A stretch of 43,141 nucleotides of DNA from a virus, in the IMG/VR virus record IMGVR_UViG_3300050120_000109, positions 1 to 43,141 of that record; one strand, given 5' to 3'. Below the pieces are notes generated by a model, which was given only the letters and a program-made list of their open reading frames with translations, was not told where the DNA came from and ran no database searches. The position numbers were made by a program, and so were the translations under genes. Shown in pieces: positions 370 through 43,141 of this stretch. Within the stretch, counting starts at the first letter, position 1. Each line of letters opens with the position of its first letter.

Positions 370-594
370 TTAGAGTTTCGGCTTCTTCAAGCCAACGAGG
401 CGGCCATTGTCTGGGTTCGTCAGTCGGCCGATCGTCAGTTGCGGGTGTTGGCGGATGATCTCGGCGGCGCGCTGGATGTCGGCGACGGCGCCGGCCGGCA
501 CCCAAACGTTAACTTGCACAAGCCCGGCCTCGGCCTGCCGCAGCTTGTGGGCACGCTGGCGGGCGGCGTTCCCGGCGCGCTGGGTCGGGCTCAT
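370..594 (-). CDS. Small basic protein (74 aa), possibly an RHH-like DNA binder. Paralog A of 34589..34807.
   Basis: An internal ATG at 594 overlaps the upstream ORF stop as ATGA. The sequence '...RQAEAGLVQVNVWVPAGAVADIQRAAEIIRQHPQLTIGRLTNPDNGRLVGLKKPKL' aligns along its length with the 34589 product. The pattern recalls small RHH/DUF3018-type antitoxin-like proteins, but this is recollection only. Confidence 0.65.
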   Translation of the reverse strand: MSPTQRAGNAARQRAHKLRQAEAGLVQVNVWVPAGAVADIQRAAEIIRQHPQLTIGRLTNPDNGRLVGLKKPKL

Positions 595-5322: not shown

Positions 5323-6066
5323 ATGAGTAAAGCCGTTACGATGGCGACATGGGATGATGTCCCACACTTGACCGATAAAGACAAAGCCGAAATGCTGGCC
5401 GCTATTCCTGAGTGGCAACGCGACGCGCGAAGTAAAGGCGTGCCGCAACTCGGGTCTGGCGCAATCTATCCGGTGTCGGAAGACGACGTTGTCATCCCGC
5501 CGTTCGCAATCCCGGCGTTCTGGCCTCGGGGCTATGCTCTCGATGTGGGCTGGAATTGCACATGCGCGTTGTTCGGGTCGCACGATCGGGAGACCGATAC
5601 CCTCTACGTCTACAACGAGCATTATATGGGGAAAGCTGAGCCAAGCACCCATGCAACCGCCATCCATGGGCGTGGGAAGTGGCTGCAAGGGGTTGTCGAT
5701 CCGGCTGCGCGCGGGCGCTCGCAAAAGGATGGCGAGCAACTCATCCAGAACTATCGCGACTTGGGCTTGATCTTGTCGCCGGCAATCAACGGGGTCGAGT
5801 CGGGCATTTTCGAGGTCTGGCAACGTCTCGTGACGGGCCGGCTCAAGTTCTTCTCGACGCTGTCGAACACGCGCGCCGAATACCGGCTCTATCGGCGCGA
5901 CGCGAAGGGGCACGTCGTCAAGGTGATGGACCACGCAATGGACACGCTCCGCTACTTGGTGATGTCCGGTATTCATGTCTTCTCGACTGATCCGGGTTAC
6001 CTGCACAAGCTGGGGCACAAGCCCGGCGTCCTGTCGGAATATGATCCGCACGCCATGACAGAGTGA
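5323..6066 (+). CDS. terL: Terminase large subunit, C-terminal nuclease fragment (247 aa) with its own ATG
   Basis: 'ATWDDVPHLTDKDKAEMLAAIPEWQRDARSKGVPQLGSGAIYP...GYALDVGW...VVDPAARGRSQKDG...VMDHAMDTLRYLV' is the typical RNaseH-fold terminase nuclease half. It starts 5 nt after the preceding stop. Confidence 0.85.
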   Translation: MSKAVTMATWDDVPHLTDKDKAEMLAAIPEWQRDARSKGVPQLGSGAIYPVSEDDVVIPPFAIPAFWPRGYALDVGWNCTCALFGSHDRETDTLYVYNEHYMGKAEPSTHATAIHGRGKWLQGVVDPAARGRSQKDGEQLIQNYRDLGLILSPAINGVESGIFEVWQRLVTGRLKFFSTLSNTRAEYRLYRRDAKGHVVKVMDHAMDTLRYLVMSGIHVFSTDPGYLHKLGHKPGVLSEYDPHAMTE

Positions 6067-20157: not shown

Positions 20158-20508
20158 ATGGCGCAACATTACATTCTCGGTGATGAGTGCAACCCGGTCG
20201 CGGTCGAATTCGATGAGTGGGTGCAGTGGTTCGGCACGGCTGATCGGCAAATCGCGGTCACCCAGGTTGATGTCGAAGGCTGTCAGGCAATCGTCTCGAC
20301 GCAGTTTATCGGCGTCGATCCCCGCCCGGAAATCCCCGGTCTGACATGGGAGGGGGCGGCGCTGCTGTTCGAAACGCTGGTTATCGGCGGGCCGCTGCAC
20401 TCGTGCGTCGTGAAATACGCGACGGTCGATGATGCCGGGCGCGGTCATGTCGTCGTGGTCGATCGCGTCGATAAGGCAATCAAGGAAGCGATAGACAATG
20501 CCCGATGA
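20158..20508 (+). CDS. Small conserved phage protein (116 aa)
   Basis: AGGAG lies 9 nt upstream of ATG 20158. The sequence is 'DEWVQWFGTADRQIAVTQVDVEGCQAIVSTQFIGVD...LFETLVIGG'. Confidence 0.65.
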   Translation: MAQHYILGDECNPVAVEFDEWVQWFGTADRQIAVTQVDVEGCQAIVSTQFIGVDPRPEIPGLTWEGAALLFETLVIGGPLHSCVVKYATVDDAGRGHVVVVDRVDKAIKEAIDNAR

Positions 20509-26500: not shown

Positions 26501-27961
26501 CTCGTCTACGATCCGGTTAAAAGCTGGGACGCGGAATTGCGCCGGCAAAAGGCGGCGGGCGGGCTGTTCGAAAATAGCTATTTCAAGGCGTCAACGCCAA
26601 AGGGACACACGCTAAAGCGTATCGACAATTATTACGCACCCATCCGCCTGAGCCTCGATGCGATGCCGTGGAAGCTGGGCCAGGCGGTCCATGACCTGGC
26701 GTTCCGCGAAGCCATCATGGCGGCGGATAAATTCCTCGGGGACAAGCGGTTGCGCGGTGTCGTTTCGTCGGCGCTCGGGCGTGAGTATGTCGGGCAATTC
26801 CGGCCGTGGCTGCAATCCATCGCCAACGATCGCAACGTCGATGACAAGGGCTTGACCGGGCTGGACTGGCTGGCGCGGCAGGCGCGCATCAACACAACCA
26901 TGGTGGGGGTTGGGTTCCGGGTCACCACCATGCTCAAGCATGGCACAACGGCGTTGTTCAATTCGTTTGGTGAGTTGGGCGCGACGTGGATGCTGCGGGG
27001 CACGCGGGAGGTCTACGGCTCGCCGGAACGCTTCATGGCCGCGCATGATTTCATCCTGTCGCAATCTGGGGAAATGCGGCATCGGATCAACTCGATCGAT
27101 CGTGACGTGCGGGAGGGCCTGCGCACCATTCAGGGCGAAAGCGGCCTCCGCGCGACGGCGGAGCGGTTCGGTCACTACGGCGTGGCAATCCTCGATATGG
27201 GGTCGGCGCTGCCGACGTGGATGGGCGCCTACCGCAAGGCGCTGGCGGAGGGGGTCGCGCCTGATGCGGCGGTCCTCGCGGCCGATAAGTCGGTGCGCAA
27301 TGCGCACGGCGCGCAAGGTATTACCGACGTGGCGGCGGTGCAGCGTGGCGGCGATGTCGCAAAGATGTTCACGATGTTCTATGGCTTTTTCAATCATATC
27401 TATAACAGGCAGAGGGATACTCTTCGCACCGCTGGTCAAGCGATAGATCAGGCCAAGCAAGGTGAGTTCGCCGGCGCGCGCCGGGACTTCGGCATCGTCT
27501 TGGCGCGGACCTTCTACTACTTGATTGTGCCGGCGCTGGTCGAAGCGATGGTGTCGGAAGGCGGGCCGGACAAGGACAAGGATGAAAGCTGGCTGGGCTG
27601 GGCGGCGAAGGCGGTTGCCGGGGAAATCCCGGCCGGTATTCCGCTGCTCCGCGATGCCGCGAAAGCCGCGATCTCCGGGCGGACCTATGAAATGTCGCCG
27701 ATTGCAAAGGCGGTCGAGACGGCCATCCTCGCCGGCCGGGATATCGGGTCTGCGATCGGGCTGCGCGATCACGAGGCGTCGCCGCGCTGGGTGCGGCACG
27801 CGATCGAAACGCCTGGCTACGTGTTCGGCCTTCCCACGGGGCAGGCGGCGGGGACCGCGCAATACCTGTGGGACATCTGGCACGGGGACGAAGAACCGGA
27901 CGGCGCGGCGGATTTCATGCGGGGCCTGATGTATGGGCCGAAACCCAAGGGCGCCAGCTAA
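20498..27961 (+). CDS. Giant polyvalent virion/ejection protein (2487 aa) with a PARP-like ADP-ribosyltransferase module and an HExxH zincin motif
   Basis: It is a single uninterrupted ORF in the T7 gp16 position. Residues about 829-1195 (nt about 22982..24082) read 'YHGSPHVFDKF...GEGAQVFGHGLYFAGNKGIARYY' ... 'GTHNYVVFDDKRV'. 'FLHETGHLWLDEM...EQHELFARGFEAYL' lies at residues 1229-1290 (HETGH at nt 24188..24202). There is a Gly/Ala-rich hydrophobic stretch at residues about 220-320. Confidence 0.9.
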   Translation: MPDDFASFVTSTLGGPVAPAAGAAPGAVGGLPSPANDIGGGFPAFMKSMHLATAQAAKGAVGAAADVNPDEAGKAVQLAPQLGLPASVVETDVPGFTQQAAAAKSNALIDGNPVLASWLAANPDAARIAKDDFDKLDVVTKAATALKSGWTGAFAGDQRGRLGMQTMLGDNSPATAASIAGFDKQLAASPQLSGVYGALQKVTGFAGGLLDNFLHSAPEAYVGAAVGGAGGLAGGGPAAPVTGAVGAIGGAAVGLGVGFKWDMSQIAAGNTYLDLGNVKGAGGESIGESAKQAAAVLVGIGTYALAGLGGKASGVPQAASGLLSDAIKESVVQPTVARALGQFAGKLAAGGAEFAAINAGMEGTSIFGTELAKQLSAGDFDTVFNDPVTRQQVIDNLMSAALDGAMLGPLVRVPGAAMGFAESSIRARQAASDVEAFHALETGTADSRMRGRSLDAFHAFLARQTDGAPTENLFLPADRVRELYQSAGIEPGADDGLLGKVAPDIAEQLDQAQHTGGDVVLPTAAYVTHLAGTPLSDHLRPDIRVRPDAMSAREAMDFQSKRAEWLADQVASTHAEMEHEQAAAGPERDVFDDVFSQLRGAGHTVDAARQYAAVVAARYGARAARLGPDAGSALDLYHQAGLTVQRAVPDDLAALPVTDTDMVLNALRQGGKRLPSTRDLMGPNLTEFVKDRGGVYDDTGDLRAMDLQRERGLIRIQKKTGLQWESKAGRTINDHHVAAWEQGYFPEHGNDPTFDDHDFVNALAAESRGDRRYALGNVDERRKGFSDAAASMDRWLDDNNIDLDHVTNDDVKRMLAQHAGDAADAYDQSAYHGSPHVFDKFDSAKIGTGEGAQVFGHGLYFAGNKGIARYYRDALSKGKTVGGVPSTELSKGAQTALRMARDMGGVARGLREYETLIAAEKRAVEEHERIVADLKAHPEKQDRDAEGWGDLGGHLSGVEADLAYRKERLAHYEETLAGFKELEGKEIKGDGRLFHVDLPEDHEYLDWDKPLKDQPAHVRAALHALGVSGDFQWSDKQPIGGGDHAWMMTDTGGGPWATQRAIIRTFGDKFEVELMHEVRPDDNESRGRTFDSLDEAKAYTETAVDKAGWGSRGSDAYHDLARKLVAPVDPEARNEGNPPGWGHVEPEHREDPAAASRALLEHGVVGVRYLDAGSRGSEGGTHNYVVFDDKRVTVKSFEQRKGDEPRGKITLEDGRAIITLFAKADLSTFLHETGHLWLDEMVQDAARPDAPQGIRDDMAAILKWMKIESPDQIDTEQHELFARGFEAYLMTGKAPSAALVGAFRKFKAWMVSIYQNALGLRAPINDQMRAVMDRMLATDNEIDAARASERHGALFRDAASAGMTNAEFAAYTGAVSAARDQASDRLLRRAMEAIRAQRTKSYREERAGIRDDVERQMRTQQDQRAQYWLRTGRMLDDPEAESGVPHQRLSGHAIKGMYDNDGVFDLLPKGTYSMVHAGIQPADVAEMFGYRDGQGLVSALMNLEARRKKAVADTGKPLDGMGFLAHQVDQETDRRMMERRGDALADGSIEEEALAAVHNAAQADVMATELRALARKAGENPPFSMASLKQWAASTIADLPVDRGAYPGTYRRSEARAGREAERALLKGDLPAAWQAKQRQLVNHLLATEADLAKDDYDAGKKLFQRFAGRGAFAGIDQAYTDRIHELLKRFGFQTSRSDDELGRGLGAQTLEGFVQTKSADGYEITIDPAFFDPRLAKPLDDLTTEEFRALKDAVTSLAHVGRMEKSVVVEGQKLELSELVAEGVDQLKDWKRSDVPAEINAGTATGFRGLLEKVSSLMRTADAGMLKQEQVFDWLDNRKADGVFNRVVFEPLKAAQHRENDLMVMLTGRLKALHETMPDGWEKGLGVSKVMPELIDERTGKPFKFRHQDILALALNTGNAVNADKLARGYGWDRGDIKTVLDREMTEHDWNFVQGIWDTFETLWPDIESLTRRMTGLGPEKVEAVPVQTPHGEFRGGYYPLVYDPVKSWDAELRRQKAAGGLFENSYFKASTPKGHTLKRIDNYYAPIRLSLDAMPWKLGQAVHDLAFREAIMAADKFLGDKRLRGVVSSALGREYVGQFRPWLQSIANDRNVDDKGLTGLDWLARQARINTTMVGVGFRVTTMLKHGTTALFNSFGELGATWMLRGTREVYGSPERFMAAHDFILSQSGEMRHRINSIDRDVREGLRTIQGESGLRATAERFGHYGVAILDMGSALPTWMGAYRKALAEGVAPDAAVLAADKSVRNAHGAQGITDVAAVQRGGDVAKMFTMFYGFFNHIYNRQRDTLRTAGQAIDQAKQGEFAGARRDFGIVLARTFYYLIVPALVEAMVSEGGPDKDKDESWLGWAAKAVAGEIPAGIPLLRDAAKAAISGRTYEMSPIAKAVETAILAGRDIGSAIGLRDHEASPRWVRHAIETPGYVFGLPTGQAAGTAQYLWDIWHGDEEPDGAADFMRGLMYGPKPKGAS
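23971..23980 (+). repeat. Copy 6 of GTTACTAGAG (plus orientation), inside the giant gene
   Basis: Exact 10-mer. In frame it reads as A-L-L-E-H. Confidence 0.9.
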
Positions 27962-30250: not shown

Positions 30251-30643
30251 ATGCGAAACATACTATTGTGCGCCGCGGGCGTGTGCCTGGTGCTGTCCGG
30301 CTGCTCGCCGGGAGATCAGGCAAGTGGGGTGGCGATCGGGCAGGCGACGCTCGCGGCGGTCGGGGCGAATACGCCAGTCCGGGGGCAACTGTTCTGCAAG
30401 GCGGTCAACCCGGTTGGTGAGACGGTTATCGAGGCGCTCGCCGATGCTGCCGGGGTGCCGGTCATCGTCTCCGGTATGGCGGTGGATGCGGTCAACACGC
30501 TCTGTGGTGGGGTGAACGGCAAGCCGGTCGCGCCGCCGGCTGACACGTCTACGGTCGTCGTCCAGTCTGTCGTAATCCCGGCTGGGGTCGTGGTGGGCAC
30601 GCCGGCCGCGCCGCTGGCGCCGATCAACCTGCCGGTCTCGTAG
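30251..30643 (+). CDS. Lipoprotein (130 aa)
   Basis: AAGGGA lies upstream of ATG 30251. 'MRNILLCAAGVCLVLSGC' is a signal peptide with an L-S-G-C lipobox. Confidence 0.7.
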   Translation: MRNILLCAAGVCLVLSGCSPGDQASGVAIGQATLAAVGANTPVRGQLFCKAVNPVGETVIEALADAAGVPVIVSGMAVDAVNTLCGGVNGKPVAPPADTSTVVVQSVVIPAGVVVGTPAAPLAPINLPVS

Positions 30644-31174
30644 GCCGTTGCCCGGCCGGCGGGGGTAGGTCGTCGGCCGGGTCGGACTGAATTGCCAATG
30701 TAGCTTGGCCCCGCTGGACAATCCGGCGGGTGCCGGGACCGTCGTCCCGCTATGCGGTTTCGTCAAGGGTGTGGCGCGTTCCTGATTCGGTCCATCCGAT
30801 TCCTGGTCGAGTCGGGGTGGTCGCGCGGCCGATTCATAACGTTCGCTTGGCGTATCGGCGGTGCGAGTCTCGATCTGGAATCGTTGATCTTTCCCTAACT
30901 TCCCATGCCGATGCAACGAGACTCCGCAACGTACTGATTTACAAGGGGTCTTGCGGCGCGGTGGGGAAGTACCGCAGCATGTCCACGCACAAGGCGTCGG
31001 CCGGGCTAACTGTTTTGCCGCAATCAAGCCCAATCGGACCCTGTGCGCCCCGAGGAAGTGGAAAGGGGCGCTACGCGCAGACATGCTTTGGTAGGTCGAG
31101 AGGGTAGGCAAACCCGATCGGGAATACAAGGGGCATGACGGGCGGGGCGGTCGCTTTCCCAATATTGAGGAAGT
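30644..31174. other. 530-bp apparently non-coding region containing a GANTC cluster. Candidate origin, regulatory region or structured RNA.
   Basis: The only ORFs are Arg/Ser/Pro-rich and look spurious in all frames. GC looks lower than the flanks by eye. Seven GANTC sites lie at 30784..30924. Confidence 0.5.
30651..30681 (+). terminator. Weak terminator-like hairpin at the end of the late operon
   Basis: CCCGGCCG / CGGCCGGG form an 8-bp stem with a 15-nt loop. There is no U-tract. Confidence 0.3.
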
Positions 31175-31747
31175 GTGACCGTGAGCGAACCAAGTGTCCG
31201 TAAGTATAGAAAAGAGATACGTGCGCACTTATCTGGTGCGGATGCGGGGCGGTGCGCAGCTTTCGCGCGCATGATGAAGGCGGCGCGCCGGATAGGTGTG
31301 TCGGCTCATTCACTTTTCGAACTGATAATGTGGTCGTTCCGCAACCATGGGCAGGGGCTTGTGCGGAAGAGTATCTCGGAAATGGTGCGGCTGTCGGGGA
31401 TGTGTCGGCAAACCATCGTCACGGCCATTAAGCAACTCGAAGATGCGGGGCTGCTGCGCAAGGTCAAGCGGCGGATTTTCGTTCGCTGGGCGCTTGGCAT
31501 CGCGTCGCGTCAGGACGTGAATATCTATGAATTGCTGGTCCCGGTCACAGAGTCTAATCGGCAGACGGTGGTAGGGGAAAATATAGAGTTAGAGTCCCTT
31601 GAACAAATGCGCCTCCGGAGAGGCGACGATATGGGGGGGGATGTGGATAAGTCGCCCCTCGATCTGGCGTTGGAAAAGCTGGGGGAAAGCATCAAGCGAC
31701 GACTGCCGGTAGCGCCTCGTCGTTGGGACTGGGTGCAACGCGGCTAG
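31175..31747 (+). CDS. Winged-helix (HTH_36-like) protein, candidate replication initiator or regulator
   Basis: 'ISEMVRLSGMCRQTIVTAIKQLEDAGLLRKVKRR' is a typical wHTH. GAGGAAG lies at 31167..31173, so the true start may be GTG 31181. Confidence 0.65.
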   Translation: MTVSEPSVRKYRKEIRAHLSGADAGRCAAFARMMKAARRIGVSAHSLFELIMWSFRNHGQGLVRKSISEMVRLSGMCRQTIVTAIKQLEDAGLLRKVKRRIFVRWALGIASRQDVNIYELLVPVTESNRQTVVGENIELESLEQMRLRRGDDMGGDVDKSPLDLALEKLGESIKRRLPVAPRRWDWVQRG

Positions 31748-33146: not shown

Positions 33147-34556
33147 ATGCCTGAACTGCATCAATTCCAAGATGACCTGCTGCAGGCGGCTCGCGCCGAA
33201 ATGGAGCATGTCCGCTCGGTCGTCGTCCAGGCTGCCACGGGTGCGGGGAAAACCGTGATCGGGACTGAGGCGCTCAAGCGGGTTCGGGAGCGTGGCAAGT
33301 ACGGCCTCTTCATGGTCAACCGGGTCGAGCTGGTCGACCAGACCGCGCGCACGTTTGAGAAATGGGGCCTGCCACACGGTATTATCGCTAACGGTTACCG
33401 GCCTAACCCGTTCCCGTCGATCCAGATTGCCTCGATTGGCTCACTTGAAAACGCTCTAAAAAAGGGCTTGGTGCGTGATCCGGCGCTGTGCGTCTGGGAC
33501 GAAGCCCACCACATGGCGGCGCCTACGTGGGCGCGGGTGATGGCCTACTTTCGCCGGGCGCGGCATCTCGGCTTGACCGCGACGCCTGAGCGCCTCGATG
33601 GGCGCGGGCTGGATGCCTTCTTTGAGGCGATGGTGTGCGGGCCACAACCGGGCTGGCTCATCGATAACAACTATCTCGCACCTTACCGGGCGTTCGGTCC
33701 GAAGCGGCCGGACCTGCGCGGCGTCGGGGATCGGGGCGACGATTACCATCCCGGCCAACTGGCCGCGATCATGGACACGCCAACGCTGTATGGCGACATG
33801 GTCGAGAATTATCAGCGCCACGGGATGGGGCAGAAGTTCATCGCCTTTTCCGTCTCGCGGGATATGTCGCGCAAGACGGCCGAACGGTTCCGGCTGGCCG
33901 GCATCCCGGCCGTGCATGTCGATGGCGACACGCCGGCCGGTGAGCGGCGGGCGACGATTGAGGCTTTCCGCGCCGGCAAGCTGCGGGGCCTGTGCAATGT
34001 CGACCTGTTCGGTGAGGGCTTCGATGTGCCCGACGCGGTCGTTGCGATCCTCGGCCGGCCAACAAAGTCCTTCGCGGTCCACAAGCAACAGATGGGCCGG
34101 GTGATGCGGTACGAGTTTGGCAAGGTGTCAATCCTGCTGGACCATGCCGGCAACCTCAAGCCGGGCTGGCTGCCGGACGATGAAACCCATTGGACGCTCG
34201 CCGGCCGGATCAAGGGGGTTAAGAAAAAGCGCCAGGCTGAGGACGATATCGATCTCGGCCGGTGCGGCAATTGTGGCGGCTTCTGCCAGCCCGGCATGAT
34301 GCTCTGCATCGGCTGCGGCGGGGTGCGCATCGAAGCCGTGGGCAAGCAACTGGAAACCGTCGAGGGCGTGCTTGGGGAATACGATGTCAAGGCGATGCGG
34401 GCCGCGCGCAAGCGCGAACAGGCGGACGCGCAAACGCTGGATGAGTTGATTGAGTTGGGGCGTCGGCGGGGTTACCGGTCGCCGGAAGGATGGGCGCAAC
34501 ACTTCTTCTCCGCGCGTGCGGCGGCGCAAGGGGGCTTTGACCTTGACGGGCGGTAG
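33147..34556 (+). CDS. SF2 DEAD/DEAH-box DNA helicase with a C-terminal zinc ribbon (469 aa)
   Basis: Motif I 'QAATGAGKT', motif II 'VWDEAHH', motif III 'LGLTATP', motif VI 'QQMGRVMR' and 'CGNCGGFCQPGMMLCIGCG'. Confidence 0.9.
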   Translation: MPELHQFQDDLLQAARAEMEHVRSVVVQAATGAGKTVIGTEALKRVRERGKYGLFMVNRVELVDQTARTFEKWGLPHGIIANGYRPNPFPSIQIASIGSLENALKKGLVRDPALCVWDEAHHMAAPTWARVMAYFRRARHLGLTATPERLDGRGLDAFFEAMVCGPQPGWLIDNNYLAPYRAFGPKRPDLRGVGDRGDDYHPGQLAAIMDTPTLYGDMVENYQRHGMGQKFIAFSVSRDMSRKTAERFRLAGIPAVHVDGDTPAGERRATIEAFRAGKLRGLCNVDLFGEGFDVPDAVVAILGRPTKSFAVHKQQMGRVMRYEFGKVSILLDHAGNLKPGWLPDDETHWTLAGRIKGVKKKRQAEDDIDLGRCGNCGGFCQPGMMLCIGCGGVRIEAVGKQLETVEGVLGEYDVKAMRAARKREQADAQTLDELIELGRRRGYRSPEGWAQHFFSARAAAQGGFDLDGR

Positions 34557-34563
34557 GCCGGGG

Positions 34564-34575
34564 CCGTTACTAGAG
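34564..34575 (+). repeat. Copy 7 of CCGTTACTAGAG (plus orientation)
   Basis: Exact and intergenic, 13 nt upstream of the ATG at 34589. It is followed at once by an 8-codon mini-ORF (ATGGGGGTATTAGATGCAAAGCCATGA). Confidence 0.9.
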
Positions 34576-34588
34576 ATGGGGGTATTAG

Positions 34589-34807
34589 ATGCAAAGCCAT
34601 GAGCGACAGGCCAAACACAAGGCGGCGAAGCGGGCGGCGGGTCTGGTGCAAGTGAATGTCTGGCTGCCGGAAGCTGCCGCCGCTGATATGCGGCGGGCGG
34701 CGGAAATCATCCGCCAGTATCCACGGCTGACGATCGGCCGGCTGTTCGATCCGACAACCGGCCGGCTGGTCAGTCTGCGCAATCCAAAGGTTGCTGATCT
34801 AAGCTGA
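34589..34807 (+). CDS. Small basic protein (72 aa). Paralog B of 370..594.
   Basis: 'AAGLVQVNVWLPEAAAADMRRAAEIIRQYPRLTIGRLFDPTTGRLVSLRNPK' aligns residue-for-residue with the 370..594 product. Confidence 0.7.
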   Translation: MQSHERQAKHKAAKRAAGLVQVNVWLPEAAAADMRRAAEIIRQYPRLTIGRLFDPTTGRLVSLRNPKVADLS

Positions 34808-35239
34808 CGGTCTGCCCGATTTTGCCTCGGGTCTTACCTTCGGTCTGCCCGGTCCACGGCGCTTGCGGGGCGGCTTGGGGAGGGCCTCAAGCGGGCGCAA
34901 CAGGGTGGGCAACCAATGGTCCTTTCGATAGGTGCGGTCGCCTGTGGCGATGGGCAGGGCGAGGGCCTTGCCGTCGATGTGGTAGGTTCCGACCGATGTT
35001 ATCTCGGCCGCGATCAGTCCCTCGGCCAGTAGTTCCCCGATCGCCTCGCAAGCCTCGTGGGTCATGCTGTGCCAAAGGATGCAGCCGTCGCGGATGCTGG
35101 CGTTAAAGCCGCCGTCGCGGAATTCCTCGAACCGGTCTGACAGTTCGGCGAATGACACGGGGAGGTTCTCGCGGATGTAGGCCAGTACGTCGGCTTTCAG
35201 GGTGGGAAGCGTGGCGGGGGATGGCTCTGGGTCGGTCAT
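34799..35239 (-). CDS. Hypothetical protein (146 aa) with a basic AT-hook-like tail
   Basis: GAGGA lies 5 nt upstream of ATG 35239. The C-terminus 'PRKRRGPGRPKVRPEAKSGRPSA' is encoded by iteron cluster A. Confidence 0.6.
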   Translation of the reverse strand: MTDPEPSPATLPTLKADVLAYIRENLPVSFAELSDRFEEFRDGGFNASIRDGCILWHSMTHEACEAIGELLAEGLIAAEITSVGTYHIDGKALALPIATGDRTYRKDHWLPTLLRPLEALPKPPRKRRGPGRPKVRPEAKSGRPSA

Positions 35240-35859
35240 GGTGTCCTCGGTCTTACCGTTTTCGGGGGATGTCTGCCTGGTGGTCTTACTGTCTGCGGTG
35301 TGGTTTCAGGTCGAAGTCGTCGGGGGCTGGGCGTGGTCCCTCGATGTCGCCGTGCTGGTGGAACGGGTCGTGGGTGATCGCCTTGGTCTGCCCGGTCTTC
35401 CCTCCGGTCTGCCTTGGGGTATGACCACGGGCGGCGCGGCCGTAGGCTTGCATCGTCGCCCATGCCTCGCGCGCAACCGCTTTCGGGATGACCGCACCCG
35501 TCGCCTCGTATAGCGCCTTGGTCGCCTGTAGGGCTTGGGCATAGCCGGCCGGGTCGAAGCCGGGGGCGATGGCGGGGTGGGCCGGGGCCTCGGGTTCGGC
35601 GGGTCTTCCCTCGGGTCTGCCGGGCGGTATGACCATCCCGGCTTGCTGGTCCGCCGCGCGTATGACGGCGTCGCTAAGCCACTCGCCTTGTGTCTGGTCC
35701 ATGCGTTCGGCGGCAACCTTGGCCTTGGTCCTCGCCTCCGTTGTCACGCCTTTGATGGTCCATGGTCTGGTCTGCTGGTCGTCGTCTGACATGGTATTCC
35801 CTCGGTCTTACCTGTGGTCTGCCCAATCGGCGCAACCGGTCTGCCCGATGGTCTGCCCG
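34809..35859 (+). repeat. Iteron array of at least 14 direct copies of GGTCT(G/T)(C/A)CC in five clusters, many as 12-bp-spaced pairs
   Basis: Approximate starts are as follows. GGTCTGCC at 34809, 34842, 35385, 35406, 35614, 35816, 35838 and 35850. GGTCTTACC at 34830, 35249 and 35804, with GGTCTTACT at 35282. GGTCTTCCC at 35394 and 35602. All are on the same strand. Confidence 0.85.
35286..35792 (-). CDS. RHH-like DNA-binding protein (168 aa)
   Basis: GAGGGA lies upstream of ATG 35792. 'RPWTIKGVTTEARTKAKVAAERMDQTQGEWLSDAVIRA' resembles the RHH-type N-terminal module seen in alphaproteobacterial PodJ-like and regulator proteins (recollection). The gene body carries iteron clusters B-D. Confidence 0.65.
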   Translation of the reverse strand: MSDDDQQTRPWTIKGVTTEARTKAKVAAERMDQTQGEWLSDAVIRAADQQAGMVIPPGRPEGRPAEPEAPAHPAIAPGFDPAGYAQALQATKALYEATGAVIPKAVAREAWATMQAYGRAARGHTPRQTGGKTGQTKAITHDPFHQHGDIEGPRPAPDDFDLKPHRRQ

Positions 35860-35926
35860 TTTCGCAAGTGTTGATTGTCCGGGGTGGGGCGCCTACCGTG
35901 CCGGCTTTGTGAGGGATGGGAAAGCC

Positions 35927-36232
35927 ATGGCTCTGCCTAACCCCGGCCCAAAGGGCGCCTTGTGGTGGATGAACGCCACGACCTGCCCGCATTGTGGCGG
36001 CAAGCTGAACGCGACGGGCACGGTCGAAAGCAAGGTGGCGCCGGCCTCGGGCGATGTCACGATCTGCGCGCATTGCCTGCATGTCCTGCAATTCGATAAG
36101 GGCCATGTGCCGCGCGCGATGGTGCCGGAACACCTGGCGCTGTTGCTGATGATGGACGAGGATTTCCGCGCCAGCATGGAAGCCGCTCAATCCTTCGTCC
36201 GGCGCACGAAACGTGCGGGCGGCTTCGGGTGA
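35927..36232 (+). CDS. Zinc-ribbon protein (101 aa)
   Basis: GAGGGA lies about 10 nt upstream. The motif is 'CPHCGG...CAHC'. Confidence 0.6.
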   Translation: MALPNPGPKGALWWMNATTCPHCGGKLNATGTVESKVAPASGDVTICAHCLHVLQFDKGHVPRAMVPEHLALLLMMDEDFRASMEAAQSFVRRTKRAGGFG

Positions 36233-36708
36233 TCGGGCCGAACGCGCTGATGTGGCTGGGCCTTGGTTTCGATGTGTTGGTGCTCGCGGCGGGCGCGATA
36301 ATCATTGCTCGCGGGCGGCGGTCGCTGCGTCTTCTGCGGGAGTCTACCGCAAGGCTGCGGCACGCAACGGCGGCGGCGTCGGCTCTGATGCTGCCTTATC
36401 TGCCGGGGGTGCGGGGCTACGTGCCGCCGATTGTTTGGGGAGAGGTATATAAAATGGATCTTCTATCGGACGATGAGCGCAACTTGTTCGTGCTGCTTCT
36501 GTCGGCGGAGGTCAGCCGTCACACGTCGCTGGGTCCGGGGGTGCAACCGGAGAAAGTCGAGGCGCTGCTACGCAAGGTCGAGGGCCGGGACCGGTATATC
36601 TATGTCAGCACACGGGCGGAGGGCTTGCCGCCCGATGCGGTGATGCGCGCGGCGGTGGATAAATCGGTGACTGGTGCGCCTTCCACGGCCGCAACCAATG
36701 GCGCGTGA
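36229..36708 (+). CDS. Membrane-anchored hypothetical protein (159 aa)
   Basis: A GTG start overlaps the upstream stop. The N-terminus 'LMWLGLGFDVLVLAAGAIIIA' is hydrophobic. Confidence 0.5.
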   Translation: MIGPNALMWLGLGFDVLVLAAGAIIIARGRRSLRLLRESTARLRHATAAASALMLPYLPGVRGYVPPIVWGEVYKMDLLSDDERNLFVLLLSAEVSRHTSLGPGVQPEKVEALLRKVEGRDRYIYVSTRAEGLPPDAVMRAAVDKSVTGAPSTAATNGA

Positions 36709-38892: not shown

Positions 38893-39206
38893 CCGAACAT
38901 CTCCGGTCCAAAGTCGTTAAGTAAACGCTGCTCGGCGCTGTTGGCCTTGCTCAGCGCCATGTCTTTGCAAAGGTGGGTGAACACAAGCCAAAGCTTGGCG
39001 CGTGCTTCTGGGGCGGCGGAGAGGGCAAGTAACTGTGCGGCTCCGACCAGTATCATCATGCCGCCCATGCGGCCTTCCTCGTCGGTGAAAAAGCCGGCGC
39101 TGTGGGCGTCGTTAAGCGCCTGGCGGGAGAGGTCGTTGCGGGCCGTCTGCATGATCTGGGCGACGATGCCGAGTTCGTGCGGGGTCCGGTCGGTCATGCT
39201 GGGCAT
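38889..39206 (-). CDS. Hypothetical protein (105 aa)
   Basis: ATG 39206 overlaps the primase stop (TAATG). Its own stop overlaps the endolysin start (ATGA). Confidence 0.5.
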   Translation of the reverse strand: MPSMTDRTPHELGIVAQIMQTARNDLSRQALNDAHSAGFFTDEEGRMGGMMILVGAAQLLALSAAPEARAKLWLVFTHLCKDMALSKANSAEQRLLNDFGPEMFG

Positions 39207-41995
39207 TAGGCGGCGTACTGCTGTTCGGCCGTCGCCTCGGAACCGAGTAGGCTCACGGTGAGGACGGTGCCGCGTTCGATCATACCGGGGCAAAAGTAGG
39301 TGGGCGGCGCGGGGCTGGCGTCTTTCAGGCTGCGCAACGGCCGCACCCAGTCGCGTTGCCATGGGGTGCCGTCTAGGATTTTCTCGATCGCCGGGGAGCG
39401 GTTGGCAACCGTGAAATAGGGCGGGTATCCGGCCGGCCGATGGACCTTGAAGCCGATGCGGCCAAGTTCCTTGTTCGCAACGTCGGGGGTGACGCCCATG
39501 AACGTCTGCGCCTTGGCGGCGATTTCGATCAGTTCGCCGATCGCCACGTCGCGGGGTCCGGTGTCGGATGGCACGCGGCGGATGGATGTCGTCAGCCTGG
39601 TTAAAAGCCGGGCCTCGTCGCGCGGGCCTTCAAGGATGGCGTGCTCGTTCCAATTGCGGCTTTTTATCCAGGTCACGGCTGCCTCGTATGTGATCAGGTT
39701 GGTGTTGTGGCACAAGTATAGACCGGCAATCATGGTGCCGATCTGGTCGGCCGCGCGTCTGTTGTGCAATACAGCGGCGGCGGCGTTGGTGAACATCTGC
39801 GCGTTCGCAAGTAACGTGGTCATGTTCTCGATGGTCCGGGCAAACATCGACGCGGCGAAATCTTCGGTGAACCAATCGCTGATGTCGTTCATCAGTTGGC
39901 GGTATTGGGCCTCGGCGTCGGGGTCGTCGTTCTTCTTTAGGACAAGCTTGGAAATTCGGCTCTCGTCGGCGTAGTGCGAAACGGCGGTGTTGATGCTGGA
40001 AAAGCAGAAACAGGATCGCATGACGTAGTCGATGGGGTCGCCGTCCTTGCCGCCTTTGCCGATACTGCCGCCTGAACTGGCGACGCGTGCGAGTGCCACC
40101 ACGGCCTGAATGCGGAGCGCGGCGGCGCGGTCCTCGCTCTCGGCCTCGTCAAAGATCACGGGCCGGGCGTCGTGGAAAAGGGTCTGCCGTAGGTTGGCCT
40201 CGGTCGTCGTGCCGTCGCGGCGGATGGCGATGGCTCCGACCACCTTTGCAACGATGTGGTCTATGACCGTCGTCTTGCCGCTGCCGGCCGGGCCGGTTAC
40301 CCAAACATGCGAACGCCATTTGAGGGCGCCGCAAATCGGCGCTGTGACAATCCAGCCGGCCAGCAACGAGGCGGAGAGGGTATTTTCCCATGTGATCCGC
40401 TCGGTGATTTCGACCAGGCGGTGTGCTGTGGCGTTGTCGGCCGGCTCCGCGCGTTTGATCGCAAGCGGGGCTTTGGCCTCGTAGATGTAGCGGCTGGGCG
40501 CCTTGGACGGCTTGGTGGTGGTGTCGCCGATGGTGACCAGTGGGCCGGTGTGCATGGTCGGCCGGCCGGCATCGATCCATGCGCCTCGGCCGCGTAGGCG
40601 GTCGCTCTCGAAAATGCCGATTTCGGCGTTGCGTTCGAACAGCGATGAAATCGCGTCGCCCACCTTGAAGTCGTTGTGTCCGCCTTTGGTCGGGAAGTGG
40701 TCGCGCCACCAGTCGGACGGGGCGAGCGTGTAGAGGTTCGCCGGGGTGTGGGCGGCTGCGGACAGGGCGATGACCTGCTGCAAGCTGTTGGGCAGGTAAA
40801 AGAACACGCCGTTGTCGAAGCCTAGCAGGCGGAACGGCCAGTCGCCCGTGAGTGCGTCGGCCTGTGGCGGCGCGTGGTCGGGCGGGGTGTCGTCGCGTGG
40901 CGGCGGCGGCGGTGGCGGCGTCCAGTCGATGGCGCGGGCCTCGATCCATTCGTCGCACGCGGCTTGGGTCCAGTGTTCGGCGATGGCGTCGGCCGCGTCC
41001 CACCCTTTGGCGCGGCTGTGGTCCCATGGGATCAGGCGGATGGGGCCGGCGCCGGCCGCGTTGCAGTGCTCTCCGACTCCGACCCATCGGCGGCCGTTCT
41101 CACGGTCGAGTCCGACCATGGTCCGCTCGCCTTCGCTGTCGGCGTCGCCCCATAGCAGCAGGGGGCGGCCGGCAAGGGGTGTCCAATCCACGTAGGCGGT
41201 TGACTTGCCTCCGCCCGGCCATGTGACCACGGGGCCGTCCCAAAGGGCTGCGGCGGCGTCTGCGGCCTTCTCGCCTTCCACGATCAATACGGGGAGGCTG
41301 AGCGGCGAAGCGGTTAGCTTGTCGAGTCGGTAGAGCGGGCGGGGCCGGTCGAACGGGAAGTGTGACCAGGCTATCTCCCCGGTGCCGGGCAGGGCGACAT
41401 ACCGCAAGGTCGGCGTGAGTTTCCGGCCTTCGTCCAATTCGATCCGCAACACGATGCCGATCGGCGCGCCGGCCGCGTCGCGGTAAACGAATACGCGCGA
41501 CGGGTGGTAGTAGGTCCAGCGGTCGCGCTTGGGGTTCCACGCCCGCAACGTCGCGCCTTCCTTGGGGATGGCGTCCTCGGGCGTGCGAACCGCGATCAGA
41601 TTGCGGTAAAGGCTGGGGGCGTCGGGGGCTTCGGGTGCTGGGGTGAGGGTGACGGGCGGCGCGTCGGCGGCTCCGCCAAGGATGGCGCACGCATCAAGGA
41701 ACGAGACTTGGTGGAGTTGCGAGACGAATTCGATAACGTCGCCGTGGGCGCCGCACCCGAAACAGTGGAAAAATCGCTTGGCGCTGTTGATCGTGAAGCT
41801 GGGGGTCTTCTCCGCGTGGAACGGGCACAGTCCCTTGAAGTCCTTGCCGTCGCGGGCGAGTCGCACGGATCGGCCGGCGATTGTCTCAAGCGGGTTGTCG
41901 GCGCGAAGGGCTGCCGTGTCGTATTTCACGGCCTCGCCTGCGGGTTTCGTGTCGGTGGGTGGGCGCCTGGGGGAGAGTTCACGGCCTGCCTTCAC
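39206..41995 (-). CDS. Bifunctional primase/helicase with a CHC2 zinc finger, a Toprim domain and a P-loop NTPase (929 aa)
   Basis: 'CPFHAEKTPSFTINSAKRFFHCFGCGAHGD', Toprim 'LIVEGEKAAD...WGDADSEGE', Walker A 'GPAGSGKT' and Walker B 'VIFDEAE'. The start is GTG. Confidence 0.9.
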   Translation of the reverse strand: MKAGRELSPRRPPTDTKPAGEAVKYDTAALRADNPLETIAGRSVRLARDGKDFKGLCPFHAEKTPSFTINSAKRFFHCFGCGAHGDVIEFVSQLHQVSFLDACAILGGAADAPPVTLTPAPEAPDAPSLYRNLIAVRTPEDAIPKEGATLRAWNPKRDRWTYYHPSRVFVYRDAAGAPIGIVLRIELDEGRKLTPTLRYVALPGTGEIAWSHFPFDRPRPLYRLDKLTASPLSLPVLIVEGEKAADAAAALWDGPVVTWPGGGKSTAYVDWTPLAGRPLLLWGDADSEGERTMVGLDRENGRRWVGVGEHCNAAGAGPIRLIPWDHSRAKGWDAADAIAEHWTQAACDEWIEARAIDWTPPPPPPPRDDTPPDHAPPQADALTGDWPFRLLGFDNGVFFYLPNSLQQVIALSAAAHTPANLYTLAPSDWWRDHFPTKGGHNDFKVGDAISSLFERNAEIGIFESDRLRGRGAWIDAGRPTMHTGPLVTIGDTTTKPSKAPSRYIYEAKAPLAIKRAEPADNATAHRLVEITERITWENTLSASLLAGWIVTAPICGALKWRSHVWVTGPAGSGKTTVIDHIVAKVVGAIAIRRDGTTTEANLRQTLFHDARPVIFDEAESEDRAAALRIQAVVALARVASSGGSIGKGGKDGDPIDYVMRSCFCFSSINTAVSHYADESRISKLVLKKNDDPDAEAQYRQLMNDISDWFTEDFAASMFARTIENMTTLLANAQMFTNAAAAVLHNRRAADQIGTMIAGLYLCHNTNLITYEAAVTWIKSRNWNEHAILEGPRDEARLLTRLTTSIRRVPSDTGPRDVAIGELIEIAAKAQTFMGVTPDVANKELGRIGFKVHRPAGYPPYFTVANRSPAIEKILDGTPWQRDWVRPLRSLKDASPAPPTYFCPGMIERGTVLTVSLLGSEATAEQQYAA

Positions 41996-42144
41996 GGTTT
42001 CGTGAGGGCAGGTTAAAGGCGCGTAAGATTACGCCGCTAGCGTAATGGTGGTGGATAACTCGGCATCACGCCAGAAAGTCGTGATAACTTAGCAACACAC
42101 AACCGCAACCTGTATTGGCTGCGGCTGTGTCTCAAAATAGGGCC
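41996..42144. promoter_or_regulatory. Intergenic region upstream of the primase with ATTACGC inverted repeats and a DnaA-box-like element
   Basis: GCGTAAG (42021..42027), GATTACGC (42027..42034) and GCGTAAT (42040..42046). GTGGATAACT (42051..42060) reads TTATCCAC on the other strand. GTGATAACT lies at 42081..42089. Confidence 0.5.
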
Positions 42145-42636
42145 TTACGGCTCGCGGCGAAGTCTGACACGCGCATGGGCCTCCGCGAGTTCCTCAAGTC
42201 CTGCTTGAAGGGTTGGGCTGATCGGTTCCTCGCCGGTCGCCATGCGGCGGACGCGGCTGCTGTCGATCGCGATCATCGAGGCAAGTTGGCGCTGGCTCCA
42301 TCCGATGATCGCGAGACATTCGCGTAAGCGGGTGGGAGTCATCGGGCCGGCGGTCGGGAACGGCGGAGGGGGCCATGCCTCGGCGCTGGCTGGTGTCGTC
42401 AGCGGGGGTTGCTGCAAGCCATGTGTGGCGGCGTGGCGGCTGGCGCCTAAAGCCGTCTGGTTGGCGGCGCGGTTCGCTACGTCGCGGCGGCTCTCGCCTG
42501 GGTAGGGGCTGGGGGCGTTCCACCACGCGCTGTCGCGGGCCTCGCGGATGATGTCGCGGCGGGGTGGCTGGGTCTGGACGCCTTGCGCGTCGTCCTCTGC
42601 TGCGCGGTTGCGGTCGGGTGGGGGTGGCATTGTCAT
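42145..42636 (-). CDS. Xre-type HTH protein (163 aa)
   Basis: ATG 42636 overlaps the upstream stop (ATGA). The C-terminal part 'LRECLAIIGWSQRQLASMIAIDSSRVRRMATGEEPIS' is a typical HTH_3 motif. The N-terminal half is Pro-rich and likely disordered. Confidence 0.6.
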   Translation of the reverse strand: MTMPPPPDRNRAAEDDAQGVQTQPPRRDIIREARDSAWWNAPSPYPGESRRDVANRAANQTALGASRHAATHGLQQPPLTTPASAEAWPPPPFPTAGPMTPTRLRECLAIIGWSQRQLASMIAIDSSRVRRMATGEEPISPTLQAGLEELAEAHARVRLRREP

Positions 42637-42878
42637 GGCTGGGGGTCTTCCTTCTCGGGGACCATGGTTATGAGCGGCTCGAAGAAATCCGCGGTGATCC
42701 GGCAAGCGATAGCGCGGCGGGTCATGGTGCGCACGTAGCAACGCCGGTACTCGGTGCCGTAGCGGTCGGGGAAGGCGCGTATGGCCTTGTCCCAGCACCG
42801 GGCGGCGATGGTCCACTCGCACGCGCGTTCGGCGAGGCGCGCTGTCCAGCGGTATTGGTCGGTCTCGGCGTCGGTCAT
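42633..42878 (-). CDS. Hypothetical protein (81 aa)
   Basis: AGGAG lies 9 nt upstream of ATG 42878. The track ORF starts at 42902, which has no RBS. Confidence 0.5.
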   Translation of the reverse strand: MTDAETDQYRWTARLAERACEWTIAARCWDKAIRAFPDRYGTEYRRCYVRTMTRRAIACRITADFFEPLITMVPEKEDPQP

Positions 42879-42908
42879 CGGGGCGGCTCCTGCGGCGGTC
42901 ATACTGGC

Positions 42909-42939
42909 GGGCAGACTTTGGGCGAAATCGGGCAGACCG
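42909..42939 (-). repeat. Two more iteron copies (GTCTGCCC and CGGTCTGCCCG on the minus strand), about 21 bp apart
   Basis: The plus strand reads GGGCAGAC (42909..42916) and CGGGCAGACCG (42929..42939). They lie in the spacer between two minus-strand genes. Confidence 0.7.
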
Positions 42940-42997
42940 TCAGAAAACGCCGAACGTGGACTTCAGCCAGTGGGCGCCTTTGCGCTTGTTGCCGCCT

Positions 42998-43141
42998 TCA
43001 GATCGGCTGGGTGATGTAGGCAAGCGCCTGGTCGGCAAGCGCGCGGTCGGCGGTCACCCAAATCTCGCAATTGGTGTCGCGGGCAAAGTTCCCGTTCGGC
43101 AGCACAATGACGAATTCGCCGTGCTCGTTCTCGTGGACGCG
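42998..43141 (-). CDS. 3' end of the junction-spanning hypothetical ORF (same gene as 1..340)
   Basis: Continuing the reading frame across the 127-bp overlap ends in TGA at 42998..43000. Confidence 0.6.
   Translation of the reverse strand, partial: RVHENEHGEFVIVLPNGNFARDTNCEIWVTADRALADQALAYITQPI
43015..43141. repeat. Second copy of the 127-bp terminal direct repeat
   Basis: Identical to 1..127. Confidence 0.95.

Follow-up and report, generated by a model that had tools for sequence, protein, structure and literature searches.

Short repeated DNA words in and beside the gene of a predicted ribbon-helix-helix protein: candidate operators in a phage and its relatives

Arrays of short DNA repeats bound by ribbon-helix-helix (RHH) proteins are known. 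The omega repressor of pSM19035 is an RHH protein that recognizes arrays of 7-bp heptads, which may be direct or inverted, and acts both as a repressor and as a centromere-binding protein. The ParR/parC loci of R1, pB171, and pSK41 are type II partition systems. Operators of MetJ, Arc, Mnt, and CopG consist of two to five boxes and are confined to promoters, and we know of no repressor of this type whose boxes are conserved in its own reading frame, in several frames. Repeats that lie inside the gene of the protein that binds them are familiar from lambda O and ori-lambda, from SPP1 G38P and oriL (gene 38), and from the lactococcal replisome organizers. Here, we analyzed a 43,141-nucleotide stretch of phage DNA (the window; IMG/VR record IMGVR_UViG_3300050120_000109, positions 1 to 43,141) in which a 9-bp word recurs through and around the gene for a 168-amino-acid (168-aa) protein with a predicted RHH fold. 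As described below, this protein very probably binds the words, and the same design recurs at about 20 diverged loci that carry homologs of it.

The word GGTCT[GT][CA]CC was found exactly 11 times on the plus strand of the window, always within 34809-35858, and once on the minus strand, at 42930. The sequence GGTCTGCC occurred nine times on the plus strand (eight copies in 34809-35850 and one at 40181) and once on the minus strand (42931). Copies with a single mismatch lay in the region at 35134, 35282, 35406, 35418, 35614, 35626, and 35793 and, on the minus strand, at 42909, and TGTCTGCCT at 35270 deviates from the word at two positions, for a total of about 20 copies in and around the 168-aa gene. 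Against an expectation of 1.1 to 1.2 exact 9-mers (maximum, 5) from simulated genomes (200 Markov-1 and 200 Markov-3), 12 were observed, and the densest 1.1 kb contained 11 copies compared to 2 to 3 at most in the simulations. One-mismatch matches were also in excess (55 observed versus 32.9 ± 6.3 in dinucleotide shuffles; 0 of 100 shuffles reached 55). A preliminary description of this DNA, made from its sequence alone, had given repeat counts and claimed an enrichment beyond chance; every count was reproduced, and the enrichment stood up to simulation.

The spacing of the words was regular. Five pairs are 12 bp apart (34830/34842, 35394/35406, 35602/35614, 35804/35816, and 35838/35850), exactly as listed in that description, and spacings of 21 to 22 bp recur as well (34809/34830, 35249/35270, 35816/35838, and 42930/42909). 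The copies are grouped in six clusters, A to F (Table 1). Clusters A and B have a common 21 + 12 bp spacing pattern, and clusters C and D are two copies of a composite element of ∼36 bp, which are mutually out of frame because they lie 208 bp apart. Two GGTAAGACC copies (35249-35257 and 35804-35812) stand directly 5′ of the GAGG...ATG of both minus-strand genes, a placement that had also been pointed out beforehand and is real. Coding sequence contains over half of the main-array words, and seven or eight lie in the 168-aa gene itself. The five words of cluster E occupy positions −66 to −1 relative to the RHH-gene ATG, on the left side of the divergent spacer, and overlap the GAGG ribosome-binding site of that gene together with putative −35 and −10 elements. 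Cluster F lies directly upstream of the ATG (42902) of an 89-aa gene, the first in an operon with the genes for a helix-turn-helix (HTH) protein and a primase-helicase. Clusters A (34809-34838) and F (42909-42938) have in common a longer module, GGTCTGCCCGATTT(C/T)GCC...word. A similar arrangement, GGTTTGCCCGATTTCGG...GGTAAAACC, was seen upstream of a distant homolog (L088, ∼5940-5975). Because this module is shared by clusters A and F and has a similar counterpart in L088, the 12- to 13-bp spacer may itself be functional.

Several lines of evidence indicate that these words are maintained as DNA. First, they are read in different frames. Cluster D, in gene sense ATG GTC ATA CCG CCC GGC AGA CCC GAG GGA AGA CCC, encodes V-I-P-P-G-R-P-E-G-R-P (MVIPPGRPEGRP), and cluster C, in gene sense GGT CAT ACC CCA AGG CAG ACC GGA GGG AAG ACC GGG CAG ACC, encodes GHTPRQTGGKTGQT (G-H-T-P-R-Q-T-G-G-K-T-G-Q-T); the two-frame reading noted earlier for this gene (PGRPEGRP in one place, RQTGGKTGQT in the other) is therefore real at the codon level. 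Second, the words bring in a rare codon. In 11 large phage genes, 2 of 473 Arg codons (0.4%) were AGA, whereas the 168-aa gene had 4 AGA among its 13 Arg codons and the 146-aa gene downstream had 3, likewise among 13. All three AGA codons of the latter lie in cluster A, which encodes the protein's tail (GPGRPKVRPEAKSGRP), and two of the four in the 168-aa gene encode the Arg residues of GRP in cluster D. Third, the words change more slowly than their surroundings. The collections contained one close relative of this phage, a 38-kb JGI contig (L001, L003, L004) with ∼86% identity to the window (L001), together with a Logan fragment (L002). Relative to L001, words differed at 11 of 162 positions (6.8%) and the rest of 34790-35926 at 139 of 975 (14.3%; Fisher P = 0.008), and most of the differences were swaps between allowed variants, such as GGTCTTACC to GGTCTGCCT or GGTATTCCC to GGTCTTACC. 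Cluster B retained its words in L001 with the word types swapped, cluster F is conserved there at 3150, and cluster E is conserved in L001 and L002.

The same design was found in homologs of the 168-aa protein. An exhaustive HMMER search recovered 175 family representatives among 1.84 billion (E ≤ 0.001), mostly 130 to 170 aa long and aligned over residues 1 to 140; word-indexed searches with single proteins as queries had found the sister contig alone, a tblastn search of the 168-aa protein against deposited phages gave no match, and a profile scan of genome contigs with the family alignment yielded no relative. We compared about 20 diverged homolog loci, mostly partial contigs, with 27 to 72% identity to each other or to the window protein. 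Each contained 5 to 10 copies of a short related word in and beside the gene: most commonly GGCAAACC, with GGCCAAC in L087, GGTAAAACC with GGACAACC in L088 and L091, GGTCATACC in L122, and G(T/A/C)CAGAC in the Acetobacteraceae plasmids pGXY050 and pKHC110_1. The window phage has its own variant, which in gene sense is GGCAGACC / GG(G/T)AAGACC plus the inverted-type GGTCATACC. Positions within the gene were conserved too. Three or four words with an 11- to 12-bp period covered the start region of 11 homologs, from the Shine-Dalgarno sequence and ATG to codons 4 to 7, and a conserved CTTGCC-N17-GGTAA element stood upstream of them in the alignment of start regions; the degenerate window word at 35769..35777 corresponds to the homologs' word at codons 4 to 7. 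Between +147 and +230 of the open reading frame (ORF), where the linker behind the RHH domain is encoded, one to three further words were present, and the tail held an inverted word and then two to four direct words. At the position of the family's RGLPP, the window protein reads RGHTP, which creates an inverted-type word of its own.

These homologs also allowed a direct look at how the word is translated. The sequence GGCAAAC occurred 55 times in direct orientation in 17 homolog coding sequences and was read as G-K-x 8 times, as x-A-N 15 times, and as [GR]-Q-T 32 times; 13 of its 14 inverted occurrences were read as G-L-P. Inside words, all 32 Gln codons were CAA, versus 30 CAA and 79 CAG codons outside words in the same genes. 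At the protein level, [RGW]QT was found 140 times in 149 family members versus 12.5 expected from composition, with a modal distance between copies of 7 residues, or 21 bp. The family alignment accordingly displays the peptides VIPPG[KR]PE, RGLPP, and [RG]QT....GQT, the latter two forming the tail motif RGLPP...[RG]QT...GQT. The homolog DNA shows that the conserved peptides G[KR]P, xAN, [RG]QT, and RGLP are all translations of one DNA word, which is placed in either orientation and in each of the three frames.

An alternative is that the repeats belong to the proteins, with GRP and GQT needed for protein function, or that they are an accident of composition. The family-wide conservation of IPPG[KR]P, RGLPP, and [RG]QT could be read in this way, as could the GRP-rich tail of the 146-aa protein, which we take to resemble an AT-hook. 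However, nearly every homolog also has the word in noncoding DNA, ahead of its ATG; the word is used in either orientation and in all three frames; it imposes rare codons (AGA in this phage and CAA in homologs); and simulated genomes never came near the observed clustering. This alternative can hardly be right. The preliminary description had held that conservation acts on the DNA and that the peptides are incidental to this phage. Its first point is upheld by codon usage, by substitutions that are fewer than in the flanks, and by homologs that use three frames and two orientations. The second needs amending: IPPG[KR]P, RQT, and GQT are found throughout the family, and so is the DNA word that they translate. 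Taken together, the differing frames, the forced AGA codons, and the lower substitution than in the flanks mean that, as far as comparison of these sequences can tell, selection is acting on the DNA.

What protein would read the word? AlphaFold2, supplied with a 50-sequence alignment, modeled an N-terminal beta-alpha-alpha unit in the 168-aa protein, consisting of an extended segment followed by helices at 18-30 and 35-50, with a predicted local distance difference test (pLDDT) score of 91 to 96 over residues 11-50 (means of ten-residue blocks). Beyond it came a linker modeled at low confidence (51-80), a helical hairpin modeled with confidence (81-122), and a tail predicted to be disordered. 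The top Foldseek ranks against the PDB were nearly all RHH proteins (TacA, PutA, VapB12, Arc, CopG, AmrZ, MatP, ParD, and NikA), with target-normalized TM-scores of 0.6 to 0.9 overall, 0.89 to 0.90 for CopG (root mean square deviation, 0.9 to 1.0 Å), and 0.65 to 0.80 for Arc. Sequence comparison gave less: single weak matches to curated models among 50 family members (NikA-like, 0.059; Antitox_RHH, 0.11) and antitoxin VapB30 as the best match of the family profile in the PDB (E = 0.055). We therefore describe the N-terminal domain as a ribbon-helix-helix by fold prediction and not as a member of a curated family. The earlier description of the ORF at 35286..35792 as RHH-like agrees with AlphaFold2 and Foldseek, as a prediction that does not reach statistical significance. 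Two residues of the predicted beta-strand, T12 and K14, are nearly invariant in the family, which would fit the conserved core of the word, and the C-terminal peptide of the family is acidic and conserved.

An all-against-all comparison of 18 homolog loci left the RHH family as the sole gene in common. The words are concentrated at this gene, with occasional extra pairs ∼1 kb away, and its neighbors are unrelated from locus to locus: CI-like HTH_3 repressors, RecT with Gp157, GcrA, an integrase, a DUF5906 primase-helicase, toxin-antitoxin pairs, and small-plasmid backbones. The primase of the window phage was absent from the array-bearing loci among these 18. Conversely, relatives with the helicase (46-49% identity) and the primase-helicase (∼40% identity; L005, L008, L009, L011) had neither an array nor a homolog of the 168-aa protein in the stretch fetched, up to 5 kb on each side of the helicase gene, and Bordetella phage PY223 had no array around its primase gene. 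The repeats thus travel with the RHH gene family across about 20 loci; comparison with related phages had been suggested as a check of whether they co-vary with this gene. Because the array follows this family and neither the primase nor the helicase, the 168-aa protein is strongly indicated as the binder, and we consider it very likely that it binds the words. Three other candidates were set aside. The C-terminal domain of the primase was rejected as the binder in this phage, given that the array tracks the RHH family instead. An origin-binding domain like that of P4 alpha within the 168-aa protein was rejected as well: its sole sequence match in the PDB, 1KA8, was at the level of chance (E = 2.2), and BLASTP of the 168-aa protein against the phage's own primase found nothing. 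A type II toxin-antitoxin system of the VapB/ParD/TacA type was rejected, since no partner gene was conserved across the 18 loci; the gene downstream varies, from the 146-aa phrog_7134 protein in the window to a zinc-ribbon protein in L097 and none in L087-L091.

The same comparison bears on whether the array is a replication origin, in which the words would be iterons in and around the gene of the protein that recognizes it. The binder would be the 168-aa protein or else the C-terminal domain of the primase-helicase, as in P4 alpha. The array does lie within a replication module that extends from the helicase gene (33147-34556) to the primase-helicase gene (39206-41995), and iterons in the linker-coding part of the binder's gene are the design of lambda O. 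Moreover, the homolog in L121 directly follows Gp157 and RecT genes, the slot of the replisome organizer in many siphoviruses, and distant relatives of the helicase have arrays directly 3′ of a primase-helicase gene whose C terminus co-varies with the word. On the other hand, the array accompanies the 168-aa family and not the primase-helicase, and this family matches no known model of an initiator or replisome organizer. No AT-rich stretch suitable for unwinding was found in 34500-36300 (GC 0.64 to 0.66 in 1-kb windows), and GC skew, proposed earlier as a check for an origin, was positive genome-wide with no turning point and gave no support. Two homolog-bearing replicons have other iterons besides. 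In pKHC110_1 (L100), ∼20-bp iterons (TGCGTCA; 2001-2190) stand directly before the replication initiation (Rep) gene, and the RHH homolog, with its different words, comes after that gene. In L085, CGGGACA occurs 10 times at ∼10-bp steps in both orientations (3515-3643) after an AAA_25 gene, 2.4 kb from the homolog, and is probably that element's own origin, distinct from the RHH words. Since these two replicons carry separate iterons beside their replication genes, an origin is disfavored, and we regard it as improbable for the array described here.

The best-fitting reading is that the words are cooperative operator arrays of an autoregulated RHH protein, to which we would give an even chance. 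One dimer would occupy each 8- to 9-bp word and insert a two-stranded beta-sheet into the major groove. At steps of 12 or 21 to 22 bp, neighboring dimers would lie on approximately the same face of the helix and could bind cooperatively, as in omega, MetJ, CopG, and Arc. Binding at cluster E would cover the putative −35 and −10 elements, the ribosome-binding site, and the first codons, shutting off the protein's own operon (the 168-aa and 146-aa genes), and, as the cluster abuts the divergent promoter, would also modulate the neighboring rightward operon. Cluster F would place the primase-helicase operon under the same control. Clusters D and C inside the gene and clusters B and A downstream would then serve as auxiliary operators that stabilize a looped or continuous nucleoprotein complex of ∼1 kb, perhaps bridged by the helical hairpin. 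Binding by the 168-aa protein, its cooperativity, and transcriptional repression as its outcome are all what we infer from the arrangement of the sequence. Autoregulation is the minimal function that fits, because the start region carries words in each of the homologs, and the positions of clusters E and F make it probable that the 168-aa protein controls several early operons. Of the roles offered in the preliminary description, an autoregulatory operator is thus the one that fits best, a centromere-like site is possible but has no nucleoside triphosphatase (NTPase), and an origin has the least support.

Several observations weigh against operators of an autoregulated RHH protein. The promoter positions are putative ones read from the sequence by eye, and a scan of 34400-36100 and 41900-43141 for consensus sigma-70 promoters found nothing; a terminator scan of both word regions likewise gave nothing usable. 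The RHH assignment is drawn from a predicted fold: the 168-aa protein matched no Pfam, NCBIfam, or PHROG model, and the Foldseek E values of the RHH matches were ∼1 or higher, since the domain has only ∼45 residues. Plain autorepression leaves unexplained the 5 to 10 intragenic words that every homolog keeps in conserved places, and an operator role is less obvious for clusters A and B, at gene ends or between genes. The retention of intragenic words suggests a larger cooperative complex over the whole gene, whether looped or continuous.

That retention is also why a centromere-like or tethering function stays a serious rival. The RHH protein would coat the array, as ParR coats parC, ParG coats parH, and omega coats its heptads, and would link the replicon to a host motor or to the nucleoid through its acidic C-terminal peptide, as a single-protein system like pSK1 Par, and autoregulation would be a side effect, as in partition operons. 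The order of RHH domain, helical domain, and tail, with up to 10 repeats at about a helical-turn period over the protein's own promoter, is the pattern of ParR/parC and omega, and the many conserved intragenic words are easier to reconcile with a large nucleoprotein complex than with a simple operator. Homologs occur on Acetobacteraceae plasmids of 4.6 to 6.3 kb (once directly after rep) and in phages, some of them in the lysogeny or early regions of temperate phages, and with no integrase recognized in the window phage, a plasmid-like prophage state is conceivable. However, no ParA, ParM, or TubZ gene was recognized among the window ORFs scanned and no partner gene is conserved across the 18 loci; very small plasmids usually do without active partition; the homolog-bearing phage L117 has an integrase and would not need it; and nothing indicates that the window phage is temperate. 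On balance, we think this function unlikely for the present array.

A broader proposal can be offered tentatively for the family as a whole. The gene and its sites may form a self-contained cassette in which an RHH word (consensus GGCARACC) is present 5 to 10 times in the gene's own promoter and reading frame, in both directions and all three frames. The most conserved peptides beyond the folded domains (G[KR]P, xAN, [RG]QT, and RGLP) would be translated binding sites and not motifs with a function in the protein, and protein and gene would together make up a single nucleoprotein unit whose role goes beyond autorepression. The cassette would probably have spread among mobile elements of Alphaproteobacteria, and it could serve as a centromere or tether that needs a single protein, as a self-silencing locus, or as a barrier to transcription or replication.

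Table 1. Positions of the word clusters, genes, and further features discussed in the text; window coordinates unless another locus is given
Feature	Position	Strand	Content or context
Cluster A	34809..34850	+	34809 GGTCTGCCC, 34830 GGTCTTACC, 34842 GGTCTGCCC; convergent 3′ ends of 72-aa and 146-aa genes
Cluster B	35249..35290	+	Spacer between minus-strand genes; 35249 GGTCTTACC, 35270 TGTCTGCCT, 35282 GGTCTTACT
Cluster C	35385..35426	+	Within 168-aa gene, C-terminal tail; GGTCTGCCC, GGTCTTCCC, GGTCTGCCT, GGTATGACC
Cluster D	35602..35634	+	Within 168-aa gene, linker after RHH domain; GGTCTTCCC-N3-GGTCTGCC-N4-GGTATGACC
Degenerate word	35769..35777	+	GGTCTGCTG; RHH-gene codons 6-8, gene sense CAG CAG ACC
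Cluster E	35793..35858	+	35793 GGTATTCCC, 35804 GGTCTTACC, 35816, 35838, and 35850 GGTCTGCCC
Cluster F	42909..42938	-	GGTCTGCCC (42938..42930) and AGTCTGCCC (42917..42909), 21 bp apart
72-aa gene	34589..34807	+	Stop codon abuts first word of cluster A
146-aa gene (phrog_7134)	34799..35239	-	Downstream of 168-aa gene; preceded by cluster B, ends in cluster A
168-aa protein gene, proposed binder	35286..35792	-	Predicted RHH (~9-50), linker (51-80), hairpin (81-122), tail
101-aa gene	35927..36232	+	First of rightward operon diverging from cluster E; weak zinc-ribbon-like matches
SF2 helicase gene	33147-34556
Primase-helicase gene	39206-41995		929 aa
HTH_36-type protein gene near RHH gene	31175-31747	+
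HTH_36-type protein gene near RHH gene	L093 2704-3228
HTH_36-type protein gene near RHH gene	L123 6603-7157
Gene annotated merely helix-turn-helix near RHH gene	L099 (pGXY050) 2131-2643
Example 8-9-mer array	L055 3266-3540
Example 8-9-mer array	L076 77-347
Example 8-9-mer array	L053 2208-2486
Example 8-9-mer array	L064 3123-3389

The first 127 bp of the window recur as its last 127 bp (1-127 and 43015-43141). It is therefore a circularly closed contig of ∼43.0 kb, probably a complete genome, with a G+C content of 64%. A podovirus-type virion module includes a portal, a major head protein, a tail protein (phrog_376), a tail fibre, an internal protein with a lysozyme-like region, and a 2487-aa polyvalent protein; the last is a single ORF on the plus strand (20498-27961) with LPD22 and ART-PolyVal domains. 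A small terminase and an endolysin are also encoded. The window ORFs scanned included no recognizable integrase, partition NTPase, DNA polymerase, or RNA polymerase, and a search for tRNA genes found none. Against deposited phages, the DNA matched solely in a fragment of the helicase, and the 146-aa protein had matches in two Staphylococcus phages alone. The Acetobacteraceae plasmids, a GcrA neighbor, and the G+C content suggest an alphaproteobacterium as the host.

Some features of the genome lie outside the array. GC skew was above zero in nearly all 1-kb windows, including 37 to 42 kb, where genes run on the minus strand; as a marker of an origin it was discarded as uninformative, the cumulative skew rising monotonically regardless of gene strand. 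The spacer before the primase-helicase gene (41996-42144) is comparatively AT-rich, with two copies of GATAACT at a distance of 20 bp and a number of short palindromes, and is a candidate for another regulatory site or origin. A probable lipoprotein (MRNILLCAAGVCLVLSGCS...) is encoded 3′ of the tail-fibre gene (30252-30643, plus strand) and is followed by ∼525 bp with no convincing ORF (30650-31175). Two small genes, at 34589-34807 (plus strand) and 370-594 (minus strand), are paralogous (63% identity over 63 aa) and present in L001 too; both products have a basic N terminus, a possible strand-helix segment, and weak MazE-like/KorA and phrog_11804 matches. The first abuts cluster A; the second is separated from cluster F by the circular junction and ∼0.5 kb of DNA that includes other genes. 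A protein of ∼170 to 190 aa is encoded within a few kilobases of the RHH gene at several loci (HTH entries in Table 1). BLASTP did not group these proteins, and the window gene has no counterpart at that place in L001.

Arrays of another kind were seen in distant relatives of the helicase (L023-L083). These arrays consist of phage-specific 8- to 9-mers (TTCCTACA, TTCCCACC, TTCTAACA, GTTAGCTA, GTAAGCCA, TGTAACCG, and others) and keep their layout while the word varies. Where examined (L055 and L064-L080), the words run in both orientations in an AT-rich spacer directly 3′ of the gene for a ∼860-aa primase-helicase. Across L064-L080, the last ∼25 residues of this protein co-vary with the adjoining word (GRFYGLYSLNHV with GTTAGCTA; GRFSNVYRLHNT with GTAAGCCA), and the rest is mostly 90 to 100% identical, which suggests that its C terminus is an origin-binding domain like that of P4 alpha.

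What appears to be new, as far as we could find, is a previously uncharacterized family whose probable binding word is conserved within the family's coding sequences, where it is read in several frames and occurs in both directions. A keyword search of the searchable literature found no description of the family, an absence that is weak evidence there, and a search with the word sequences matched primer sequences alone. Conserved peptide motifs and rare codons would here be footprints of DNA recognition. The locus would thus be a clean natural example of a protein code and a DNA-binding code that share one sequence, and it would call for caution in annotating proteins by motif. If it is true that the intragenic sites build a partition or tethering complex in the absence of an NTPase, they would represent a new type of minimal maintenance module in phages and plasmids. 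The system is directly testable, with a small protein, a defined word, and synonymous recoding as a means of separating the role of the DNA from that of the protein.

How, then, does the locus compare to the described systems? In presumed function, its nearest counterparts are RHH repressors and centromere-binding proteins that recognize series of short boxes (omega, ParR, ParG, MetJ, Arc/Mnt, and CopG), and for sites inside the gene of the binder itself, lambda O/ori is the nearest precedent in architecture. The locus lacks the feature that defines each of four known kinds of system: the NTPase of partition systems, the toxin of toxin-antitoxin loci, the primase linkage of P4-type origins, and the unwinding element of lambda-type origins. 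In its architecture, an array with an adjoining RHH gene, it is compatible with partition by ParA/ParG-omega or ParM/ParR, whose cognate NTPase was not found. It resembles ParR/parC in having a predicted N-terminal RHH domain, a helical domain, and a disordered C-terminal tail, in its inferred autoregulation, and in about ten short direct repeats at about a helical-turn period that span the gene's own promoter. It differs in that there is no ParM gene, the family being solitary with no conserved neighbor, and in that the repeats form several clusters over ∼1 kb and run through the gene itself.

With P4 alpha, whose type I iterons are octamers at ori and crr, the locus shares octamer-sized words, two separated clusters, and a primase-helicase of more than 900 aa. 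In contrast, the window words follow the 168-aa RHH family and not the primase-helicase. The resemblance to lambda O, with repeats in a linker-coding segment and a peptide shaped by DNA sites, is one of architecture only. Lambda-type iterons are ∼19 bp long and accompanied by an AT-rich unwinding region, whereas nothing here is AT-rich, and the replicons that carry homologs have other iteron arrays beside their replication genes. The DNA-binding domains of the lambda O, SPP1, and lactococcal initiators are, to our understanding, not described as RHH, unlike the domain predicted here.

Omega is closer, although no sequence similarity between it and the 168-aa protein was detected. By analogy, a small RHH protein would bind cooperatively, with a single dimer on each short asymmetric word, and could combine the roles of repressor and centromere binder, with 2 to 10 adjacent words in either orientation over promoters that include its own. 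The present words are 8 to 9 bp long and placed at 12- or 21- to 22-bp steps instead of being contiguous heptads. In addition, the 168-aa protein is extended by a predicted helical hairpin and a long tail, no ParA (delta) gene lies next to its gene, and over half of the main-array words fall in coding sequence, seven or eight of these in the gene of the proposed binder. The predicted fold is matched best by MetJ with its metbox, by Arc and Mnt of P22 immI, and by CopG of pMV158. Tandem short boxes, cooperative dimers, divergent or autoregulated promoters, and phage or plasmid contexts are common to these systems and, by analogy, to ours, and the hallmark of RHH tandem operators, boxes at about helical-turn spacing over the start region with its putative promoter, is present at this locus.

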